Shown: positions 5,774-42,189, counted from the first letter of the stretch. The stretch is DNA of 64,000 nt from Candidatus Nanohaloarchaea archaeon (GCA_041640035.1 JBEQBC010000002.1:32001-96000), one strand, 5' to 3'. Numbers and translations are program-made. Notes: generated from the sequence alone by a model not told the origin.

Positions 5774-7576
5774 CTAGGAAGTGGAGTTTGCTTTGAAGGT
5801 TATCGTACCGTTGTAGCCGCCTTCTGTCATCCCAAAGGGTACATCTATCCAGTAAAAAGTGGATATGATATCTCCAGGATCTATATTCGATTTTACATGC
5901 TGGTAACTGTTGCTCAGTCTATTCTCTGTACTGATATCGTTTTGAAGGCTGTAAGACATGTTTGAAGCTCCGATCACATAGCTTGGATCTACAGTAGAAA
6001 CCAGGTCTGTCGCGTTCACCCAGAGATTGTCTATCGGAGCGCTGTCCTCACTTACCGTGATATTATACTCCAGATCGTTGTTTCCTTCCGCAGACTTGTT
6101 TTCTACTCCTGGATTAAGTGCTCCGAAGTCTATCGTAGTCCAGTTCAGACTGAAATCTATCGGCACAGAGATCTCGACCTGGAAATCACGGGAATCGTTC
6201 TCCGGTATACCCGGATAAGAGTTGCTGGAGGCGTTAACATCCAGATCATGATAGGAATCCTGAGGACCTGTCGCGTTTACATCCCAGTCAATCTGGCATT
6301 CCTCACCTGAAACCAGGTTACATGACTCCCCTGGACCTTCCTGTAGAGCGAAAGGCTTCTCTCCCTGTCCTGGCAGTATCTGCTGTCCTCCCGTGCTGTT
6401 GTATCTTGGATTAGCCTCCACAGTTCCGCATTCTCCATCAGAACAGGTCAGGTTTGCGGTGAGAGCGAAAGTCTTGTTCTGTGTAACGATAGTGTTATTT
6501 GGAGGAGATATGAAATCTACATCTATTCTGCCGTACTTTATTGCCTCTAAAATGTGTTCATCTTCATCTGAAGCTGCTGTTGATGAATCGGAGACCAGGA
6601 ATCTTTGATCAAATGTTTCTGTATCGGTCAGCGAGGTTTGTGTTACATAGCTTGCGTTCATAGATGTACCGTTCTGAAGTACTGCATCATTTCCTGTATC
6701 CCATGTAACTCTGCCTGATGAGAAGGAGCCGCCTGTATACTCTGTATTGGCGTTGTAGAATATCTGATCTACCGTCCAGCCGGTGTCGATTCCGTCATGG
6801 TACAGTGTGTCGGCTGAGGCTAGATCCCAGTCCTCGCTTCCACTGTTTTTGACCTGGAAAGTGAACCTGAATGACGCTGCCTGATCCTTCTGCTCTGTCT
6901 GAAAGGTCTTGTTCAATCCCTGGTCGATAAGTTGGCCCTGGTACTTCTTCTCGGAGCTTGAGAGCCCTGTTACATTGTAGACTCTGATCTCCGTCACATT
7001 TAGTCTCGGAGCGGTATCCCCTGCGGTGTATGCTGAGAAACTTGATAGATTAAAGCTGAAGATACTAGTGTCCTGGGAGATACTGTAGTCGGTAGATGAA
7101 TTGATATTCCAGTCCGGACAGTCTGTAGAGCTGAAATCATAGCTGTTACATTTGAGAATGTTATCCGGCGCATTGCTTCTACCATAGCTAATCTCACTTT
7201 GATCAAAATTGATACCTGTGTTTTTGAATCCGTAGATTTTCTCTCCGTTTTCAAGATAAGGTGTTGATTCTTTTCGGTCCGTCAACCGTATATCCGGGTT
7301 GAAACCCTCTGTCAGGTTCAGTTCGTAGATTGTAACATTGATATCACCGGTTCCAAAGTCCTGAATAACCGTGTAATTATGGTTTGTAGCCAGATCTGCG
7401 GTAAGGGTATCCTGTGACTGTGCTACGATACCTGAACTGTTTTTCACTGTGTATTCCGCCGGTACTGTTTGGCCATCTTTGTTCAGTGTTTCGAGCTGGA
7501 GCTGTGACTGTGCTGCTGCTCCCGACAAGGTTATTATTAGTAGAAGGGTTATGAGCAGTGTTTTTCTGCTATACAT
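5774..7576 (-). CDS. Secreted multi-domain beta-sandwich surface protein
   Basis: Signal peptide, sequon-rich, Cys pairs, C-terminal IDFG...GGYNGTITFKA domain; no C-terminal TM. Confidence 0.72.
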   Translation of the reverse strand: MYSRKTLLITLLLIITLSGAAAQSQLQLETLNKDGQTVPAEYTVKNSSGIVAQSQDTLTADLATNHNYTVIQDFGTGDINVTIYELNLTEGFNPDIRLTDRKESTPYLENGEKIYGFKNTGINFDQSEISYGRSNAPDNILKCNSYDFSSTDCPDWNINSSTDYSISQDTSIFSFNLSSFSAYTAGDTAPRLNVTEIRVYNVTGLSSSEKKYQGQLIDQGLNKTFQTEQKDQAASFRFTFQVKNSGSEDWDLASADTLYHDGIDTGWTVDQIFYNANTEYTGGSFSSGRVTWDTGNDAVLQNGTSMNASYVTQTSLTDTETFDQRFLVSDSSTAASDEDEHILEAIKYGRIDVDFISPPNNTIVTQNKTFALTANLTCSDGECGTVEANPRYNSTGGQQILPGQGEKPFALQEGPGESCNLVSGEECQIDWDVNATGPQDSYHDLDVNASSNSYPGIPENDSRDFQVEISVPIDFSLNWTTIDFGALNPGVENKSAEGNNDLEYNITVSEDSAPIDNLWVNATDLVSTVDPSYVIGASNMSYSLQNDISTENRLSNSYQHVKSNIDPGDIISTFYWIDVPFGMTEGGYNGTITFKANSTS

Positions 7577-18265: not shown

Positions 18266-18374
18266 CTGTATACCTGTTTTGGAGAAGTGAGATTCATAAA
18301 ATAACTGACCTTCTATGAATTGAGGGATGATAGTGGTGTTGGTTTTTTGAAGATTCGCCGTGTATCTTGTTACT

Positions 18375-18824
18375 ATGATTGATCCTCGTGAACTTGAGGG
18401 ATTCGAGAAAGATGTTTTCTTCCTTGGAGTTTCCCTGCTTCTAGCAGTTTCGTTTGTTGCAGCACATAATACTACTGTTTCCGAGGATCAGCCAGAAGTC
18501 GGTCCGATCGAACTTCACTCCGAGTGCATAGGTTTTGATGCAGGTGTCTGCCTGGGAATCGAACATGTAACACATACAGTCGATAATTACTTTGATGAAA
18601 ACTATACTGATCCGGAGCCAGGTACAAGTGAATATTACCAGCGAGTTGAAGCGGAGTTGATGCTTCAGGGCTACGGTGTTTGTAGAGAGAATCAGGATAT
18701 GACTGGTATGGACTGGGTTTCTGAGACCAGTTATGATAACAAGACCGGTGATGAGTGGCTTGAGAACGAGAATATCCAGCTTCTTCCGTGTGAGGATACT
18801 TTCCGTTACACTTTGGAAGATTAA
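18375..18824 (+). CDS. Membrane-anchored Cys-containing extracellular protein (paralogue of 8022-8399)
   Basis: TM helix then CIG....CLG, TGMDW, DEWLEN, IQLLPC; start taken as ATG 18375. Confidence 0.65.
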   Translation: MIDPRELEGFEKDVFFLGVSLLLAVSFVAAHNTTVSEDQPEVGPIELHSECIGFDAGVCLGIEHVTHTVDNYFDENYTDPEPGTSEYYQRVEAELMLQGYGVCRENQDMTGMDWVSETSYDNKTGDEWLENENIQLLPCEDTFRYTLED

Positions 18825-19377: not shown

Positions 19378-19569
19378 GTGACACGACTTTACCGTTCAGA
19401 ATCCGACAGAATCCTTGGCGGAGTATGTGGAGGGATCGCAGAGATCTATGATTTGGATCCGTCCCTAGTCCGTCTTGTAGCGGCTTTACTTGTCCTTGGA
19501 GCCGGTTCAGGGCTATTGATCTATCTACTGGCCTGGCTGATCATCCCTACCAAAAGCGAAGTTAAGTAA
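19378..19569 (+). CDS. pspC: PspC domain protein
   Basis: LYRS..DRILGGVCGGIAE...DP..VR and YLLAWLIIP signature. Confidence 0.9.
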   Translation: MTRLYRSESDRILGGVCGGIAEIYDLDPSLVRLVAALLVLGAGSGLLIYLLAWLIIPTKSEVK

Positions 19570-19590
19570 AAAGAAGAAGTAGTAGTTTTC

Positions 19591-19663
19591 GGGAGGTTCA
19601 GCACTTAATAGGACAAGCAAAGAGTCTCTGCTTGCGTTCCCGCAGGGCTCATCATCACCCCCC
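19591..19663 (-). ncRNA. Atypical box C/D guide RNA (predicted target tRNA-Leu)
   Basis: Minus strand: 7-bp terminal stem GGGGGGT/ACCTCCC, box C ATGATGA, box D CTGA, internal hairpin; G-U pairs work only on this strand; 13-nt guide antisense to tRNA-Leu 42125-42137. Confidence 0.75.
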
Positions 19664-19679: not shown

Positions 19680-21311
19680 TTATTCGTAAAGTTTCTCTAC
19701 ATCCAGTTCAAGTCCGACAGCTTTCTGTTCAAGCTCCCAGTTATCAAGGACATCTTCATTGATCTCTCCCAGGTGTCCGATGGTTTCTCCATCTTTGATT
19801 ATTTCTGCTGCCCGGTCATGTGTGTAGTAAGGCATCTCGCTTTCATTTACTTTGAGATCGAATCCTGTGTCTCTTTCTATGACCTGTAGGACCTGTCGGA
19901 TATCTGTGAAGTCGACATCGGTACCTGAGATTACATAGGACATTTTCCGTACATTTCTGGCGCCGTTCTGTTCCGGATAGGCGACATCTTCGGCCTCGTA
20001 GAATCTCTGAGGATAGCTGTGCTGCCTGTTGTTCTTCAGGACCTCCATCATGGATGGAAGCATCTGGTTCCTGACAACTGTGTAGTCTTCTGTTAAAGCG
20101 TTGCTCATCTCGACTACATTCTGCTCAGCCGCGTTCATGTTGTGGAATAGTTTTTCTTTGCTGGATAGTGTGAATGTGTGTGCTTCCAGTGCTCCGGTTC
20201 CCTGTAGGATATCTCTGAGTTCTTCTGTATGCTCTTCTATACTTTTTTCATCTGCAGCCGTATCCAGTTCCGGCAGTTCCGGTTCTATATTGTGGTACCT
20301 GTGTGCGATGACGATGTCTTCGATCAGATCGTACTGATGCATTACATCTGTCCGATATGAAGGTATGCCGACCTTGATGCTGTTTTTCTTTTTCTTGGCT
20401 CTGAAACGCATCTGTTCCAGTCTTTCAGCGATCTCATCTTTAGATAAGTCGAGACCTGAGACTTCTCGGAAGTAATCTAGCTCCAGCTTCATCTCTTCTG
20501 GTTCCAGTAGAGGCATGTGATTGTTCTCGATCTCTACCGTTTCGATTCCTGCTCCTCTTTCGGCTAAAGCCGTGGTCAGGATGTTTACGACCTTGAGAAC
20601 TGTGTCTTTGTCCTTTCCTGTTACATCGATGAAGATATCTGTTGTTTCGGAGGTTACTTCTGTTAGCTGGTTGTTGATGATAGGTGGGAAGCTGAGGATC
20701 TGACCGTTGGAGTCCTCGATGATCGGGTACTGGTCTTCGTCTTCCAGTATCCAGGCGTATTCCTGTCCTTTGTCGTGTTCGTCTAGTATTTCCTCTAGAT
20801 GTACCTCTTCGCCGTATTCAAGAGGCGTAAAGCTTACCTGTTCTGGTGCTACTGCTTTGTAGGTGAAAGGCGGTTCTACTGAGTCCAGGTCGTGGAGTCC
20901 GATGGCTATCTTGTCTCTTCTCCTTCCTACTGTCTGATGTAGCTTTTCCTGTAGCTGGATCAGGCCGTTGATTATTCTTGGTGTTAGTTCGACATCTCTG
21001 ATTACTGCTCCGCCTATGTAAGGTCTTACAGTTTCTACTGATTCGTCTACATCCAGTCGGATGTTTCCTTTGGTGGTTTTGTAGTTTCTTACTCCTGTTT
21101 CAAGGTCGAAGAATCCTTTGTATGCTCTTGCCAATCCTTCAACACTTAGGAGGTCCGGGCGGTTGGGGTATGTTTCTACTTCCCATTTGTCGCCTTCTTC
21201 GTGGTTCCAGTGTGCTCCGAGGTATGATGCTTCTTCATGTAGTTTTTCTTCGCTGATTTCCTGTCCTAGTAGTTCTTCGAATTCTTTCTTGTTTATCTTT
21301 AGTGTCGGCAT
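19680..21311 (-). CDS. pheT: Phenylalanine--tRNA ligase beta subunit
   Basis: PNRPDLLSVEGLARA, QEKLH, SFPPIIN, YRTDVMHQYDLIED; ATG 21311 overlaps the pheS stop (TAATG). Confidence 0.96.
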   Translation of the reverse strand: MPTLKINKKEFEELLGQEISEEKLHEEASYLGAHWNHEEGDKWEVETYPNRPDLLSVEGLARAYKGFFDLETGVRNYKTTKGNIRLDVDESVETVRPYIGGAVIRDVELTPRIINGLIQLQEKLHQTVGRRRDKIAIGLHDLDSVEPPFTYKAVAPEQVSFTPLEYGEEVHLEEILDEHDKGQEYAWILEDEDQYPIIEDSNGQILSFPPIINNQLTEVTSETTDIFIDVTGKDKDTVLKVVNILTTALAERGAGIETVEIENNHMPLLEPEEMKLELDYFREVSGLDLSKDEIAERLEQMRFRAKKKKNSIKVGIPSYRTDVMHQYDLIEDIVIAHRYHNIEPELPELDTAADEKSIEEHTEELRDILQGTGALEAHTFTLSSKEKLFHNMNAAEQNVVEMSNALTEDYTVVRNQMLPSMMEVLKNNRQHSYPQRFYEAEDVAYPEQNGARNVRKMSYVISGTDVDFTDIRQVLQVIERDTGFDLKVNESEMPYYTHDRAAEIIKDGETIGHLGEINEDVLDNWELEQKAVGLELDVEKLYE

Positions 21312-22693
21312 TATTCTGGCCTCCATTTTGGTGTTGTTTCAAGGAGTTCTATGTCGTTTCTGTACAGTTCGCGGATATCCTCGATTCCTGCTGCTTTGGC
21401 TGCTATTCTTCCGACTCCTAGGCCCCAGGCGAGTACTCTGGCTTCGAATCCTAGCAGTGGTTTGACTACTTCTGGTCGGAACATTCCTGCTCCTCCGAGT
21501 CCTAGCCATTCCTCTTCTTCCTCATCGTATACCTGTACTTCTACGCTCATCTCAGTGTATGGGTAGTATGATGGTATTAGCCGGAATTCTTCGTATCCCA
21601 TTTTGTGGAAGAATTCGCTGATGTATCCTTTGAGGTTTGCGAAGCTGAGGTCTTTTCCTACTACGATTCCGTCGGTCTGGAAGAACTCTGGTAGGTGGAA
21701 CCGGTCTATCGTTTCATTTCGGAAGTTTCTGGATACTGTGAAGTATTTCTTTGGAAGGTCTTCTTCGTTTATTTCGGATAGTTTTCTTGCTGATACTGCT
21801 GTGGTATGTGTTCTGAGTACATTCTTGGCTGCTTCTTCTTCGCTCCAGTCGTAGCCCCATCCTGTGCTTCCTGTGGTCCAGCCGTCTTCATGTGTCTCTT
21901 TGATTCTCTGAGCTATCTTTTCTAAGTCGTTTAGGTCGGCTGTTTCAGGGTTTGAGAGGAAGAAGGTGTCATGCATTTCCCGCGCTGGGTGGTCCTGTGG
22001 CGTATATAGTGCGTCGAAGTTAAGCAGGCTGGAGACTACATATTCTCCCTGCATTTCCCGGAAGCCCATTTCCATCCAGTTTTTCCGGGCTTCGGTGATA
22101 ATTTCCTTGTAGAAGTGTTTTTTACCGGTTCTAGGTGTTTTGACTTCTGCTTCTACATTGAAGTCGACATCTACTTCTTCAGGATTTATTTCTTCTGTTT
22201 TTTCTGTCGGCTGTAGTGTTCTTATTATGTTTTCTACTGTCTCGATCAGGCCTCTTTCTTCGTGTTCTGAGGTGTAGTTTCCGTTTTCGAGTCTAAACTG
22301 TAGGTTGTCTTGGTCGGTGTTTTTGTGGCCTTCGTCGGTTATTGATACTTTTCCTGCACTTATTTCGATCCAGCCTTTTTCTCTGGCTTTTCCTAGTGCT
22401 ACATCCATTTCGTCGATATCTAGTTCTGAGACTTCGCTTGGTCCTTGTTCGACTTCTTCCAGTAATTGGTATTCAGGTGATCCCTGTTCAAGTACTTTCT
22501 CTCCTTTTTCTGTGAGTTCTTTGTGTATCTCTGTTTCTTCCTCAGTTTCCACTAGGTCTTTTTCTTCCAGTTCTATTGCTGCACGGTTGACCATGGACTG
22601 GTCGAATCCTTCTTTTTCCAGTTCTCTTACTGTGAGGTCTCCGTGTTTTTTCAGTTCCTTGAAGATATCCAGTGCCTGAGAGGTGAGTTTCAC
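21311..22693 (-). CDS. pheS: Phenylalanine--tRNA ligase alpha subunit
   Basis: NFDALYTPQDHPAREMHDTF, LRTHTT, FRNE, YYPYTE, GMFRPE, AWGLG motifs. Confidence 0.97.
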   Translation of the reverse strand: MKLTSQALDIFKELKKHGDLTVRELEKEGFDQSMVNRAAIELEEKDLVETEEETEIHKELTEKGEKVLEQGSPEYQLLEEVEQGPSEVSELDIDEMDVALGKAREKGWIEISAGKVSITDEGHKNTDQDNLQFRLENGNYTSEHEERGLIETVENIIRTLQPTEKTEEINPEEVDVDFNVEAEVKTPRTGKKHFYKEIITEARKNWMEMGFREMQGEYVVSSLLNFDALYTPQDHPAREMHDTFFLSNPETADLNDLEKIAQRIKETHEDGWTTGSTGWGYDWSEEEAAKNVLRTHTTAVSARKLSEINEEDLPKKYFTVSRNFRNETIDRFHLPEFFQTDGIVVGKDLSFANLKGYISEFFHKMGYEEFRLIPSYYPYTEMSVEVQVYDEEEEEWLGLGGAGMFRPEVVKPLLGFEARVLAWGLGVGRIAAKAAGIEDIRELYRNDIELLETTPKWRPE

Positions 22694-42083: not shown

Positions 42084-42166
42084 GCCGGGGTAGCCAAGTG
42101 GCCAAAGGCGACGGACTCAAGATCCGTTCCCGCAGGGGTTCCCGGGTTCAAATCCTGGCCCCGGCA
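42084..42166 (+). tRNA. tRNA-Leu(CAA)
   Basis: GCCGGGG/CCCCGGC acceptor, ACGGA-CTCAAGA-TCCGT anticodon arm, long variable arm CCCGCAGGG. Confidence 0.97.
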
Positions 42167-42189
42167 TCTAAGCCCATACTGAACAAGCT

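Follow-up and report, generated by a model that had tools for sequence, protein, structure and literature searches.

A conserved K-turn RNA next to pheT of Nanohaloarchaea as a probable guide for wobble methylation of tRNA-Leu

Layout and genomic position of the RNA

The window analysed here was a stretch of 64,000 nucleotides from a Candidatus Nanohaloarchaea archaeon. Its minus strand carried pheT (19680..21326), a 548-aa ORF for the beta chain of PheRS with the Pfam domains tRNA_synthFbeta, B5, B3_4 and PhetRS_B1, and the gene for the PheRS alpha chain, also recognised by Pfam, was located just upstream of it. A convergent plus-strand gene for a small membrane protein with a PspC domain (19378..19569; Pfam PspC, 84.3 bits) bounded the intergenic spacer behind pheT. 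This spacer contained an RNA of 73 nt on the minus strand (19591-19663, read from 19663 to 19591), with the pheT stop codon 17 nt upstream of it. The sequence upstream of the RNA was A/T-rich, and a run of five U at 19568..19572 of the minus strand, 19-23 nt past the terminal helix, may represent an archaeal oligo-U terminator, judging from its sequence. The proposed target, tRNA-Leu(CAA), was encoded on the plus strand at 42084..42168; ARAGORN placed its CAA anticodon at 42118-42120, with the wobble base C34 at 42118, and the proposed anchor site was at 42125-42137.

On the minus strand the RNA read GGGGGGU-G-AUGAUGA-GCCCUGCGGGAACG-[CAAGCAGAG-ACU-CUUUGCUUG]-UCCUAUUAAGUG-CUGA-ACCUCCC, which reproduced exactly the terminal stem, canonical C and D boxes and hairpin described in the original prediction. 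The terminal helix, which is the C-stem of the K-turn, was formed by GGGGGGU (19657..19663) and ACCUCCC (19591..19597). A linker G (19656) led to box C, AUGAUGA (19649..19655), and G19656, A19655 and U19654 made up the 3-nt bulge of the K-turn. Next came the 5' spacer GCCCUGCGGGAACG (14 nt, 19635..19648), antisense to nt 41-45 and the variable-arm hairpin of tRNA-Leu, and an internal hairpin with the arms CAAGCAGAG and CUUUGCUUG (19614..19634; 9 bp, 3-nt loop ACU, fold z -4.69). A tenth pair, G19635-U19613, was possible, so that this hairpin had 9-10 bp. The 3' spacer, or D guide, UCCUAUUAAGUG (12 nt, 19602..19613) faced the anticodon loop of tRNA-Leu, with A19606 as its fifth position upstream of box D (N+5), and was followed by box D, CUGA (19598..19601). 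The minimum free energy fold of the whole RNA retained both the terminal stem and the hairpin at -29.6 kcal/mol (z -2.68; 3 of 200 shuffles equalled it).

Between its two boxes the RNA of the window had no UGAUGA- or CUGA-like motif, and in all 26 aligned homologues a helix was found where an archaeal box C/D sRNA has its C'/D' motif (K-loop), in agreement with the predicted plain hairpin at this place. The closing helix was predicted in every homologue and had z < -2 in 24 of 26 (200 shuffles each), while the sequence in the middle was free and varied in size from 14 to 144 nt. From box to helix, the 5' spacer was most often 12 nt long (14 of 26; range 11-15), and from helix to box, the 3' spacer was most often 11 nt long (10 of 26; range 9-14). 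These values agreed with the spacer of about 12 nt of C/D sRNAs if the stem was counted as a platform. Spacers of about 12 and 11 nt suggest that the stem substitutes structurally for C'/D', and the internal helix is probably a second, K-turn-free platform for Nop5. The earlier description as a single-K-turn guide may therefore give the hairpin too little weight. We also considered whether GGGA(C) and UUGAG, where the hairpin starts, could form a cryptic C'/D' K-turn, and rejected this, since g1, the genus of the window's own genome, read AA instead of GA and the nucleotides in question lay in the tRNA duplexes described below. Antisense pairing of the internal domain with tRNA-Leu introns was likewise discarded, as it did not exceed shuffles for 9 of 11 introns.

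All 29 loci examined had the RNA in the spacer that adjoins the 3' end of pheT. In 21 of them it shared the strand of pheT, and its box C came 18-91 nt after the last aligned codon; in the remaining 8 it was inverted relative to pheT, and seven of these eight inverted copies were located 19-36 nt behind the convergent PspC-domain gene. The RNA was therefore always close behind a stop codon, although not always that of pheT. Co-transcription with pheS-pheT, as originally proposed, was not conserved across the loci. The position fits an sRNA derived from a 3' UTR, with no specific tie to pheS-pheT, and such an origin is a described biogenesis route of archaeal C/D sRNAs according to the part of PMC7994747 available to us.

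The genome encoded L7Ae, Nop5 and fibrillarin, each above its Pfam cut-off, as should be the case for a guide-type RNA and as the original prediction had proposed to confirm. The fibrillarin and Nop5 genes were adjacent on one contig (C5), and within the order 67 of the 70 genomes had fibrillarin. We also scanned the genome for other guides. A strict K-turn scan returned three candidates, among which only the pheT-adjacent RNA was compact; a scan for the canonical C-D'-C'-D order gave one doubtful match on contig C18, and a relaxed C/D scan gave 19 candidates that were mostly coding-like. Thus, these crude motif scans revealed no other convincing C/D RNA in the genome. Rfam at the gathering threshold recognised only tRNAs within the window, and at E<=10 the best sub-threshold models were SNORD124 (15.9 bits, threshold 40) and snoPyro_CD (13.2 bits, threshold 45).

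Conservation and covariation

A BLAST-type search of 41 relatives returned four homologues, all adjoining pheT. An 18-nt pattern made of box C and the first 11 spacer nt, with one mismatch allowed, had one match each in 26 of the 70 order genomes, all of which belonged to a single family (f1), and a reversed control pattern had no matches in the same 70 genomes. These 26 homologues were aligned (A2), and a covariance model (R1) was built from the alignment. At E<=0.01 the model detected the RNA in 32 of the 70 order genomes, one copy each: the window's own genome, 29 of 49 genomes in f1, 1 of 10 in family f3 and 1 of 8 in family f4. The f4 match was weak (22.7 bits). The phylum scope was the identical set of 70 genomes. 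The single f3 match (G039, 30 bits) had the boxes and a UUGAGUG spacer, but its 5' region differed, with no obvious match to the variable arm of its own tRNA-Leu. A separate 9-nt pattern, GACTYAAGA, searched over 30 genomes, was too short to inform.

We also scanned a collection of 185,579 species with the 18-nt pattern, which occurred in at least 119 places. By our own estimate this number was about that expected by chance. Among the 80 collection matches listed, R1 gave scores of 55-80 bits to nine. A further 67 stayed at or below 30.5 bits and were chance matches to the pattern, and the last four had no match at E<=0.01. Nanohaloarchaea or Nanohalobium stood in the titles of seven of the nine strong matches among those listed, one was titled "uncultured archaeon" and one, oddly, was titled as a bacterial MAG. 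Of seven sequencing runs considered, five covered part of the window, each of them a DNA run, and no RNA run covered the region. The one run that covered most of the region was labelled as a hypersaline-lake metagenome.

The terminal helix covaried strongly. In A2, 91.8% of its cells were paired compared to 59.4% in shuffles, and double changes occurred at all seven pairs. Its covariation score was 0.927 versus 0.271, none of 500 shuffles reached the observed score, and sliding the helix partner by 1-3 columns as a control gave scores of at most 0.31. In the register of A2 the helix abutted box D, and three unpaired nt preceded the GA of box C, as in the geometry of a K-turn. Thus, the covarying helix together with its register gave the flanking helix, the 3-nt bulge and the tandem G-A pairs of this motif. 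Box C (columns 10-16 of A2) was invariant except for position 1, which was G in one genome (G016), and position 5, which was U, C or A; position 5 was G in another genome (G059). Box D was CUGA in 22 of 26 homologues, CCGA in three and CUGG in one. Position 2 of box D was C only where position 5 of box C was C as well, in five elements from two neighbouring genera. This co-change fits the non-canonical pair that the two positions form, but it probably corresponds to just one or two events.

The two spacers were the most conserved parts of the RNA in A2. Taken together, the boxes, whose loss in relatives would have spoken against the earlier proposal, the stem and both spacers were kept in relatives by both A2 and R1, and from the sequence comparison we conclude that this is a real, conserved, K-turn-bearing RNA of the guide type, with conservation far beyond chance. 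It was by no means universal. R1 did not find the element in 20 of the 49 f1 genomes, which nevertheless keep fibrillarin, and this counts against its reading as a guide. Five complete or near-complete f1 non-carriers were examined at the pheT-pspC spacer, and the element was missing from it in all five.

Complementarity to tRNA-Leu

The 13-mer on the plus strand opposite the 5' spacer (19635-19647) was identical to nucleotides 42125-42137 of tRNA-Leu(CAA), exactly as originally noticed, giving 13 of 13 Watson-Crick pairs. With tRNA-Leu(UAA), the isoacceptor whose presence had been anticipated and which was encoded on contig C13, the same spacer formed 12 Watson-Crick pairs and one G:U. Within the spacer, CCCUGCGGGAC paired with G43-U44-C45 and with the whole CCC-GCA-GGG variable-arm hairpin. 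The two duplexes had energies of -28.7 (CAA) and -26.7 (UAA) kcal/mol, the two best totals among 36 tRNAs. Throughout the 0.98-Mb assembly, the other sites pairing at 12 or more of 13 positions were tRNA-Leu(UAA) on C13, one site in a coding region and one site with 11 pairs plus one.

The pairing of the 5' spacer was maintained among relatives. From 29 carrier genomes we retrieved tRNA-Leu(UAA) in 20 cases and tRNA-Leu(CAA) in 27; two gave neither. The spacer formed 9-13 contiguous pairs with tRNA-Leu(UAA) in all 20 genomes (11 or more in 18 of them) and 9-13 pairs with tRNA-Leu(CAA) in all 27 (10 in 22 of them). Moreover, the 3' end of the spacer tracked tRNA positions 41-44 in several lineages, which is the covariation between guide and tRNA-Leu that the original prediction had called for. 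Namely, the spacer end GGGAACG in g1 matched CGUUCCC of the tRNA, GGGAAU in G022 matched AUUCCC of its CAA tRNA, GGGACG in G005 matched CGUCCC, and GGGACA in G016, G017 and G046 matched UGUCCC.

The 3' spacer made a much shorter contact, and its register was nearly constant. The 7-mer beside box D was conserved as UUGAGUG, or as UUAAGUG in genus g1. Outside g1, 23 of 24 genomes had Watson-Crick pairs throughout between positions N+2 to N+7 and A31-A36 of tRNA-Leu(CAA); only G054, whose box D was degenerate as well, departed from this. With tRNA-Leu(UAA), the register outside g1 was unchanged, with a G:U pair at position 34 in 16 of 17 cases. All three g1 elements had A at N+5, a Watson-Crick partner for U34 of tRNA-Leu(UAA) that was mismatched (A:C) with C34 of tRNA-Leu(CAA). 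The RNA of the window also paired at N+2 to N+7 with A31-A36 of tRNA-Leu(UAA), with N+5 facing U34. Overall, N+5 was kept on nt 34 in 28 of 29 parsed elements, again with G054 as the exception. Both the placement of the fifth guide position on the wobble base and the better fit of the UAA isoacceptor at N+5 had been proposed from the window sequence, and both were borne out. Since position 34 was not Watson-Crick paired for one isoacceptor in each lineage, only one of the two isoacceptors would be a textbook substrate, which is a point against the reading as a guide.

Several features of this duplex were less favourable. N+8 faced G37, as a mismatch in g1 and as G:U elsewhere, which counts against the reading as a guide. 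The duplex of the 3' spacer had 6-8 bp with N+5 on nt 34, while the second duplex of 9-13 bp lay outside it. In the accessible part of a survey of Pyrobaculum sRNAs (PMC6009581), nine continuous Watson-Crick pairs were used as the prediction criterion, and a guide duplex of 6-8 bp falls below it, which is another point against a guide. Additionally, the 3' spacer in the window's genome was not selective, with -6.9 kcal/mol on tRNA-Leu versus -7.5 to -8.1 kcal/mol on other tRNAs. Discrimination among tRNAs came from the 5' spacer. In summed spacer-only duplex energies over 36 tRNAs, tRNA-Leu(UAA) was first at -33.6 and tRNA-Leu(CAA) second at -32.1 kcal/mol, with the next best at -25.4 and a median of -20.0 kcal/mol. 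Cofolding of the whole 73-nt RNA with the same 36 tRNAs gave a different order that stands against tRNA-Leu: tRNA-Arg(UCU), tRNA-His and tRNA-Met were at the top, tRNA-Leu(CAA) was sixth and tRNA-Leu(UAA) was outside the top eight. We considered this cofold uninformative because the nucleotides of the boxes and the stem, which would be bound by protein in the RNP, were free to pair and because the intact tRNA structure competed.

The two tRNA segments followed each other in the right antiparallel order and were 2-4 tRNA nt apart. With this order and spacing, the tRNA would form a three-way junction together with both spacers and the internal helix, and a tRNA-Leu intron at 37/38, where present, would emerge at this junction.

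Candidate function, alternatives and known systems

We consider it likely that the RNA, as a box C/D guide, directs the formation of Nm34 in tRNA-Leu(UAA/CAA), with a stem in place of C'/D' and the 5' spacer serving as an anchor. In the proposed mechanism, the expressed RNA would assemble into an RNP and guide the 2'-O-methyltransferase made of fibrillarin, Nop5 and L7Ae. Its ends would fold into a canonical K-turn, made of the terminal helix, a bulge of 3 nt and the paired boxes C and D. The 3' spacer would pair with the anticodon loop (nt 31-36, possibly up to 38) of the UUR-reading tRNA-Leu, and the wobble nucleotide 34, opposite N+5 of the guide, would receive the ribose methyl. The predicted product would be Um34 of tRNA-Leu(UAA) in genus g1 and Cm34 of tRNA-Leu(CAA) in most relatives, possibly with Um34 through the G:U pair. 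A second, strong duplex of 9-13 bp would come from the 5' spacer, which reaches across nt 41/43-45 and the entire variable-arm hairpin of that tRNA; this duplex may open the anticodon and variable arms and provide specificity. Because the guide duplex was limited to the 7-nt loop and A31 and was short and A/U-rich, the 5' spacer can be understood as an anchor or helix opener. Both duplexes would meet at the internal helix in the place of C'/D', at canonical spacer distances.

One alternative differs in the role of the 5' spacer. If the stem fully replaced D'/C', this spacer would itself be a catalytic guide; besides position 34, a cytidine where the variable arm begins, five positions upstream of the stem, would be methylated. 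Its canonical length, with the mode of 12 nt in 14 of 26 homologues, would suit such a function, and the tRNA-Trp intron that guides two sites would be a parallel. However, the register was not conserved, since the g1 spacer was 1-2 nt longer and shifted the partner of N+5. The duplex of 11-13 bp also exceeded what a spacer held at both ends can reportedly accommodate, namely 10 bp, as Yang et al. 2016 are said to have found. For P. furiosus, a database prediction quoted in PMC7668247 places a C/D-guided methylation of tRNA-Leu(UAA) at position 47, but a modification at this position was not detected among the tRNAs analysed there. On balance we regard methylation by both spacers as unlikely. 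A variant in which one K-turn and a plain helix, acting as an L7Ae-independent Nop5 platform, allow the RNP to clamp one tRNA-Leu across a three-way junction and to methylate both 34 and a variable-arm cytidine at a distance of five positions from the stem is doubtful, if somewhat easier to defend. If it were true, the RNA would be a natural counterpart of the engineered C/D-free guides described in the accessible text of PMC9670817.

Other explanations dispense with methylation or with tRNA-Leu altogether. The strongest pairing lay outside any N+5 site, and in many relatives the tRNA-Leu genes were interrupted at 37/38 by introns of 48-112 nt, which fall precisely between the sites of pairing; a K-turn RNP that binds tRNA-Leu as a chaperone of folding, splicing or stability of the often intron-bearing precursors, with or without fibrillarin activity, might therefore be imagined. 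In one genome (G064), the internal domain even had a 12-nt match to the tRNA-Leu(CAA) intron, and none of 200 shuffles gave one as long. Such a role is improbable given that N+5 was kept on 34 in 28 of 29 elements, that intron complementarity stayed within shuffles for 9 of 11 introns and that the tRNA-Leu genes of g1 were without introns and yet the element was retained. Still less probable is that the RNA acts as an L7Ae-binding K-turn or a terminator within a 3' UTR, regulating or ending the pheT or pspC mRNA, with the match to tRNA-Leu being incidental. The position, always about 6-80 nt behind a stop codon, and the U5 run after the RNA in the window would be expected from such an element, and L7Ae binds K-turns of mRNAs in archaea, as stated in the available part of PMC5539422. 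On the other hand, the spacers were the most conserved parts and co-varied with the tRNA, the element kept its own polarity when inverted to pheT, and five relatives had both genes together without it. That the D guide is truly directed at rRNA or another RNA rather than at tRNA-Leu is barely credible. A better rRNA target would have spoken for this according to the original prediction, and we found none that was conserved in the four relatives with rRNA that the search covered (the window genome's own rRNA was not assembled). In one of them (G021), the 3' spacer did pair at 9 of 10 positions at LSU 2838 and the 5' spacer with 10 pairs and one G:U out of 11 at LSU 1327, but these sites were about 1500 nt apart and fell below 9/10 in G020, G016 and G008. 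Moreover, only 7 nt of the 3' spacer were conserved, which fits a loop target and not an rRNA duplex of 10-12 nt.

With respect to known systems, the likely function as a wobble guide is not new as such, since C/D-guided wobble methylation is known and guides of this kind have been predicted for tRNA-Leu in Pyrococcus. Clouet-d'Orval et al. 2001, as cited in PMC7994747, predicted that C/D sRNAs of Pyrococcus act on the wobble base of both tRNA-Leu(CAA) and tRNA-Leu(UAA). They share the enzyme system, the tRNA species and position 34 with our candidate, as a functional analogy only. The source describes them as ordinary C/D sRNAs of hyperthermophiles, whereas the pheT-adjacent RNA had a helix for C'/D' and a second spacer on the same tRNA; snoPyro_CD of Rfam at 13.2 bits did not amount to a match. 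The tRNA-Trp intron and the haloarchaeal sR-tMet guide Cm34 (PMC4033218, PMC6313347). As described in the portions of these papers we could consult, they have C/D-guided ribose methylation of wobble 34 in common with our RNA, and the tRNA-Trp guide likewise addresses two nearby sites on one tRNA; they differ in acting on other tRNAs, and the tRNA-Trp guide sits inside the intron of its target. The bacterial TrmL and the eukaryotic Trm7-Trm734, presented as protein-only wobble methylases of tRNA-Leu in the same portion of PMC4033218, reach the same outcome (Cm34 or xm5Um34) on the pair of UUR-reading tRNA-Leu, but without a guide RNA.

The anchor has its nearest likeness in the "extra base-pairing" that stimulates yeast and human box C/D snoRNPs (van Nues et al. 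2011, PMC3116282). From the available text of that work, both cases involve a second conserved antisense element beside the methylation site together with a C'/D' that is divergent or unrecognisable. However, these snoRNAs are eukaryotic and have rRNA targets, while our RNA was archaeal, had a tRNA as its proposed target and formed an accessory duplex far stronger than the guide duplex.

Our searches returned no literature on C/D sRNAs or guide RNAs of Nanohaloarchaea, and the original Pyrococcus paper or the supplements of the Pyrobaculum survey may hold similar architectures. Within these bounds, no guide RNA appears to have been described before for these small-genome archaea of salt lakes. 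A conserved natural guide that keeps canonical spacer lengths but carries, instead of the internal C'/D' motif, a helix free to vary in sequence and size appears to be undescribed. The same seems to apply to archaeal accessory pairing in which a short, loop-directed guide duplex would be rescued by a stronger neighbouring duplex, with co-evolution of tRNA and guide in several lineages.

For the helix itself, the relevant precedent is the in vitro work of Wang, Yang & Ye 2022 (PMC9670817), in which archaeal Nop5 accepted stems instead of C/D motifs in the engineered guides BMG1, BMG2 and BMG3. These share with our RNA a plain helix for a C/D-type motif, spacers that link two platforms (12-13 nt in BMG) and a target five positions from the platform. 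In contrast, the BMG guides are artificial and, in the experiments reported, were used with Sulfolobus proteins only and at 70 deg C. It is the terminal motif that is absent from BMG1 and the internal one that was absent from the pheT-adjacent RNA, and the natural helix was variable in structure, at 14-144 nt. The same text reports that monopartite or stem-only guides were poor in vitro, which counts against the guide reading preferred here, and it asks whether natural archaeal C/D RNAs with a stem in place of a motif exist. The RNA behind pheT would be a compact and testable system for the related question of how much of the C/D architecture is needed in vivo.

The tRNA-Leu pair in the genus of the window

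In the genus to which the window belongs, the tRNA-Leu(UAA) gene (contig C13 of the window's own assembly, G000, positions 7486-7570, outside the window) was nearly identical to the tRNA-Leu(CAA) gene (window positions 42084-42168), from which it differed in the anticodon and at a few other positions. Genera other than this one had distinct anticodon stems in the two tRNAs, with CAGGA/UCCUG in one and ACGGA/UCCGU in the other. Comparison of the gene sequences suggested that in the genus of the window a copy of one tRNA-Leu gene took the place of the other, and that this occurred alongside the G-to-A change at N+5, the fifth guide position upstream of box D, which faces wobble nucleotide 34.

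Another leucine isoacceptor gene, tRNA-Leu(GAG), was present together with its adjoining coding stretch as two near-identical copies on contigs C11 and C21 of G000, and this near-identity suggested assembly redundancy. No SSU or LSU rRNA was found in the 24 contigs of this assembly, which was 89% complete.

Introns in the proposed target and candidate intron pairing

Many tRNA-Leu(CAA/UAA) genes from relatives were interrupted at position 37/38 by an intron of 48-112 nt (loci L009, L018, L105, L107, L116, L118-L121, L124 and L125). In one relative, G021 (L012), the tRNA-Leu(CAA) intron was located in the D-arm instead.

The element of the relative G064 (L050) had an unusually long internal domain, the conserved spacer cores lying 151 nt apart. 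Within this domain, a run of 12 nt was perfectly complementary to the tRNA-Leu(CAA) intron from the same genome (L107), and a complement as long was obtained in 0 of 200 shuffles. Nothing comparable was observed in the other nine introns tested, apart from an 8-nt intron-complementary run in G053 (3 of 200 shuffles).

Putative divergent copies and other candidate guides

Several loci carried sequences resembling partial or altered forms of the element. In G005 (L035 / L005), the 3' end of the RNA occurred a second time, as GUGCUGACGCCUUUU, roughly 90 nt further downstream; this copy comprised the spacer end, box D and the stem strand, as if the 3' part of the element had been partially duplicated. 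In G006 (L129), a genome without a match to the covariance model R1, AAAAUUGAACGCUGACGC was located on the opposite strand directly past the pheT stop and resembled a decayed spacer, box D and stem; no recognisable box C was found upstream of it. Family f3, from the same order as the main carrier family, provided a 30-bit relative (G039, L084) with the same boxes, a terminal stem and an AAUUGAGUG spacer. Its 5' region, with two hairpins, was unrelated to that of the element, and this RNA may be a sister guide without the anchor on the variable arm.

A full-length element of the type found in the window's genus (L198, 55.1 bits with R1) was encoded on a contig titled as a marine bacterium; the contig or bin was probably mislabelled.

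Elsewhere in G000, a tRNA-Met(CAU) gene (contig C3, positions 18293-18459, outside the window) had a 94-nt intron at position 37/38. The start of this intron was complementary to the anticodon stem-loop, and GAUGAGGA- and CCGAUGA-like motifs were present within it. The intron could be considered a possible candidate for an intron-borne guide.
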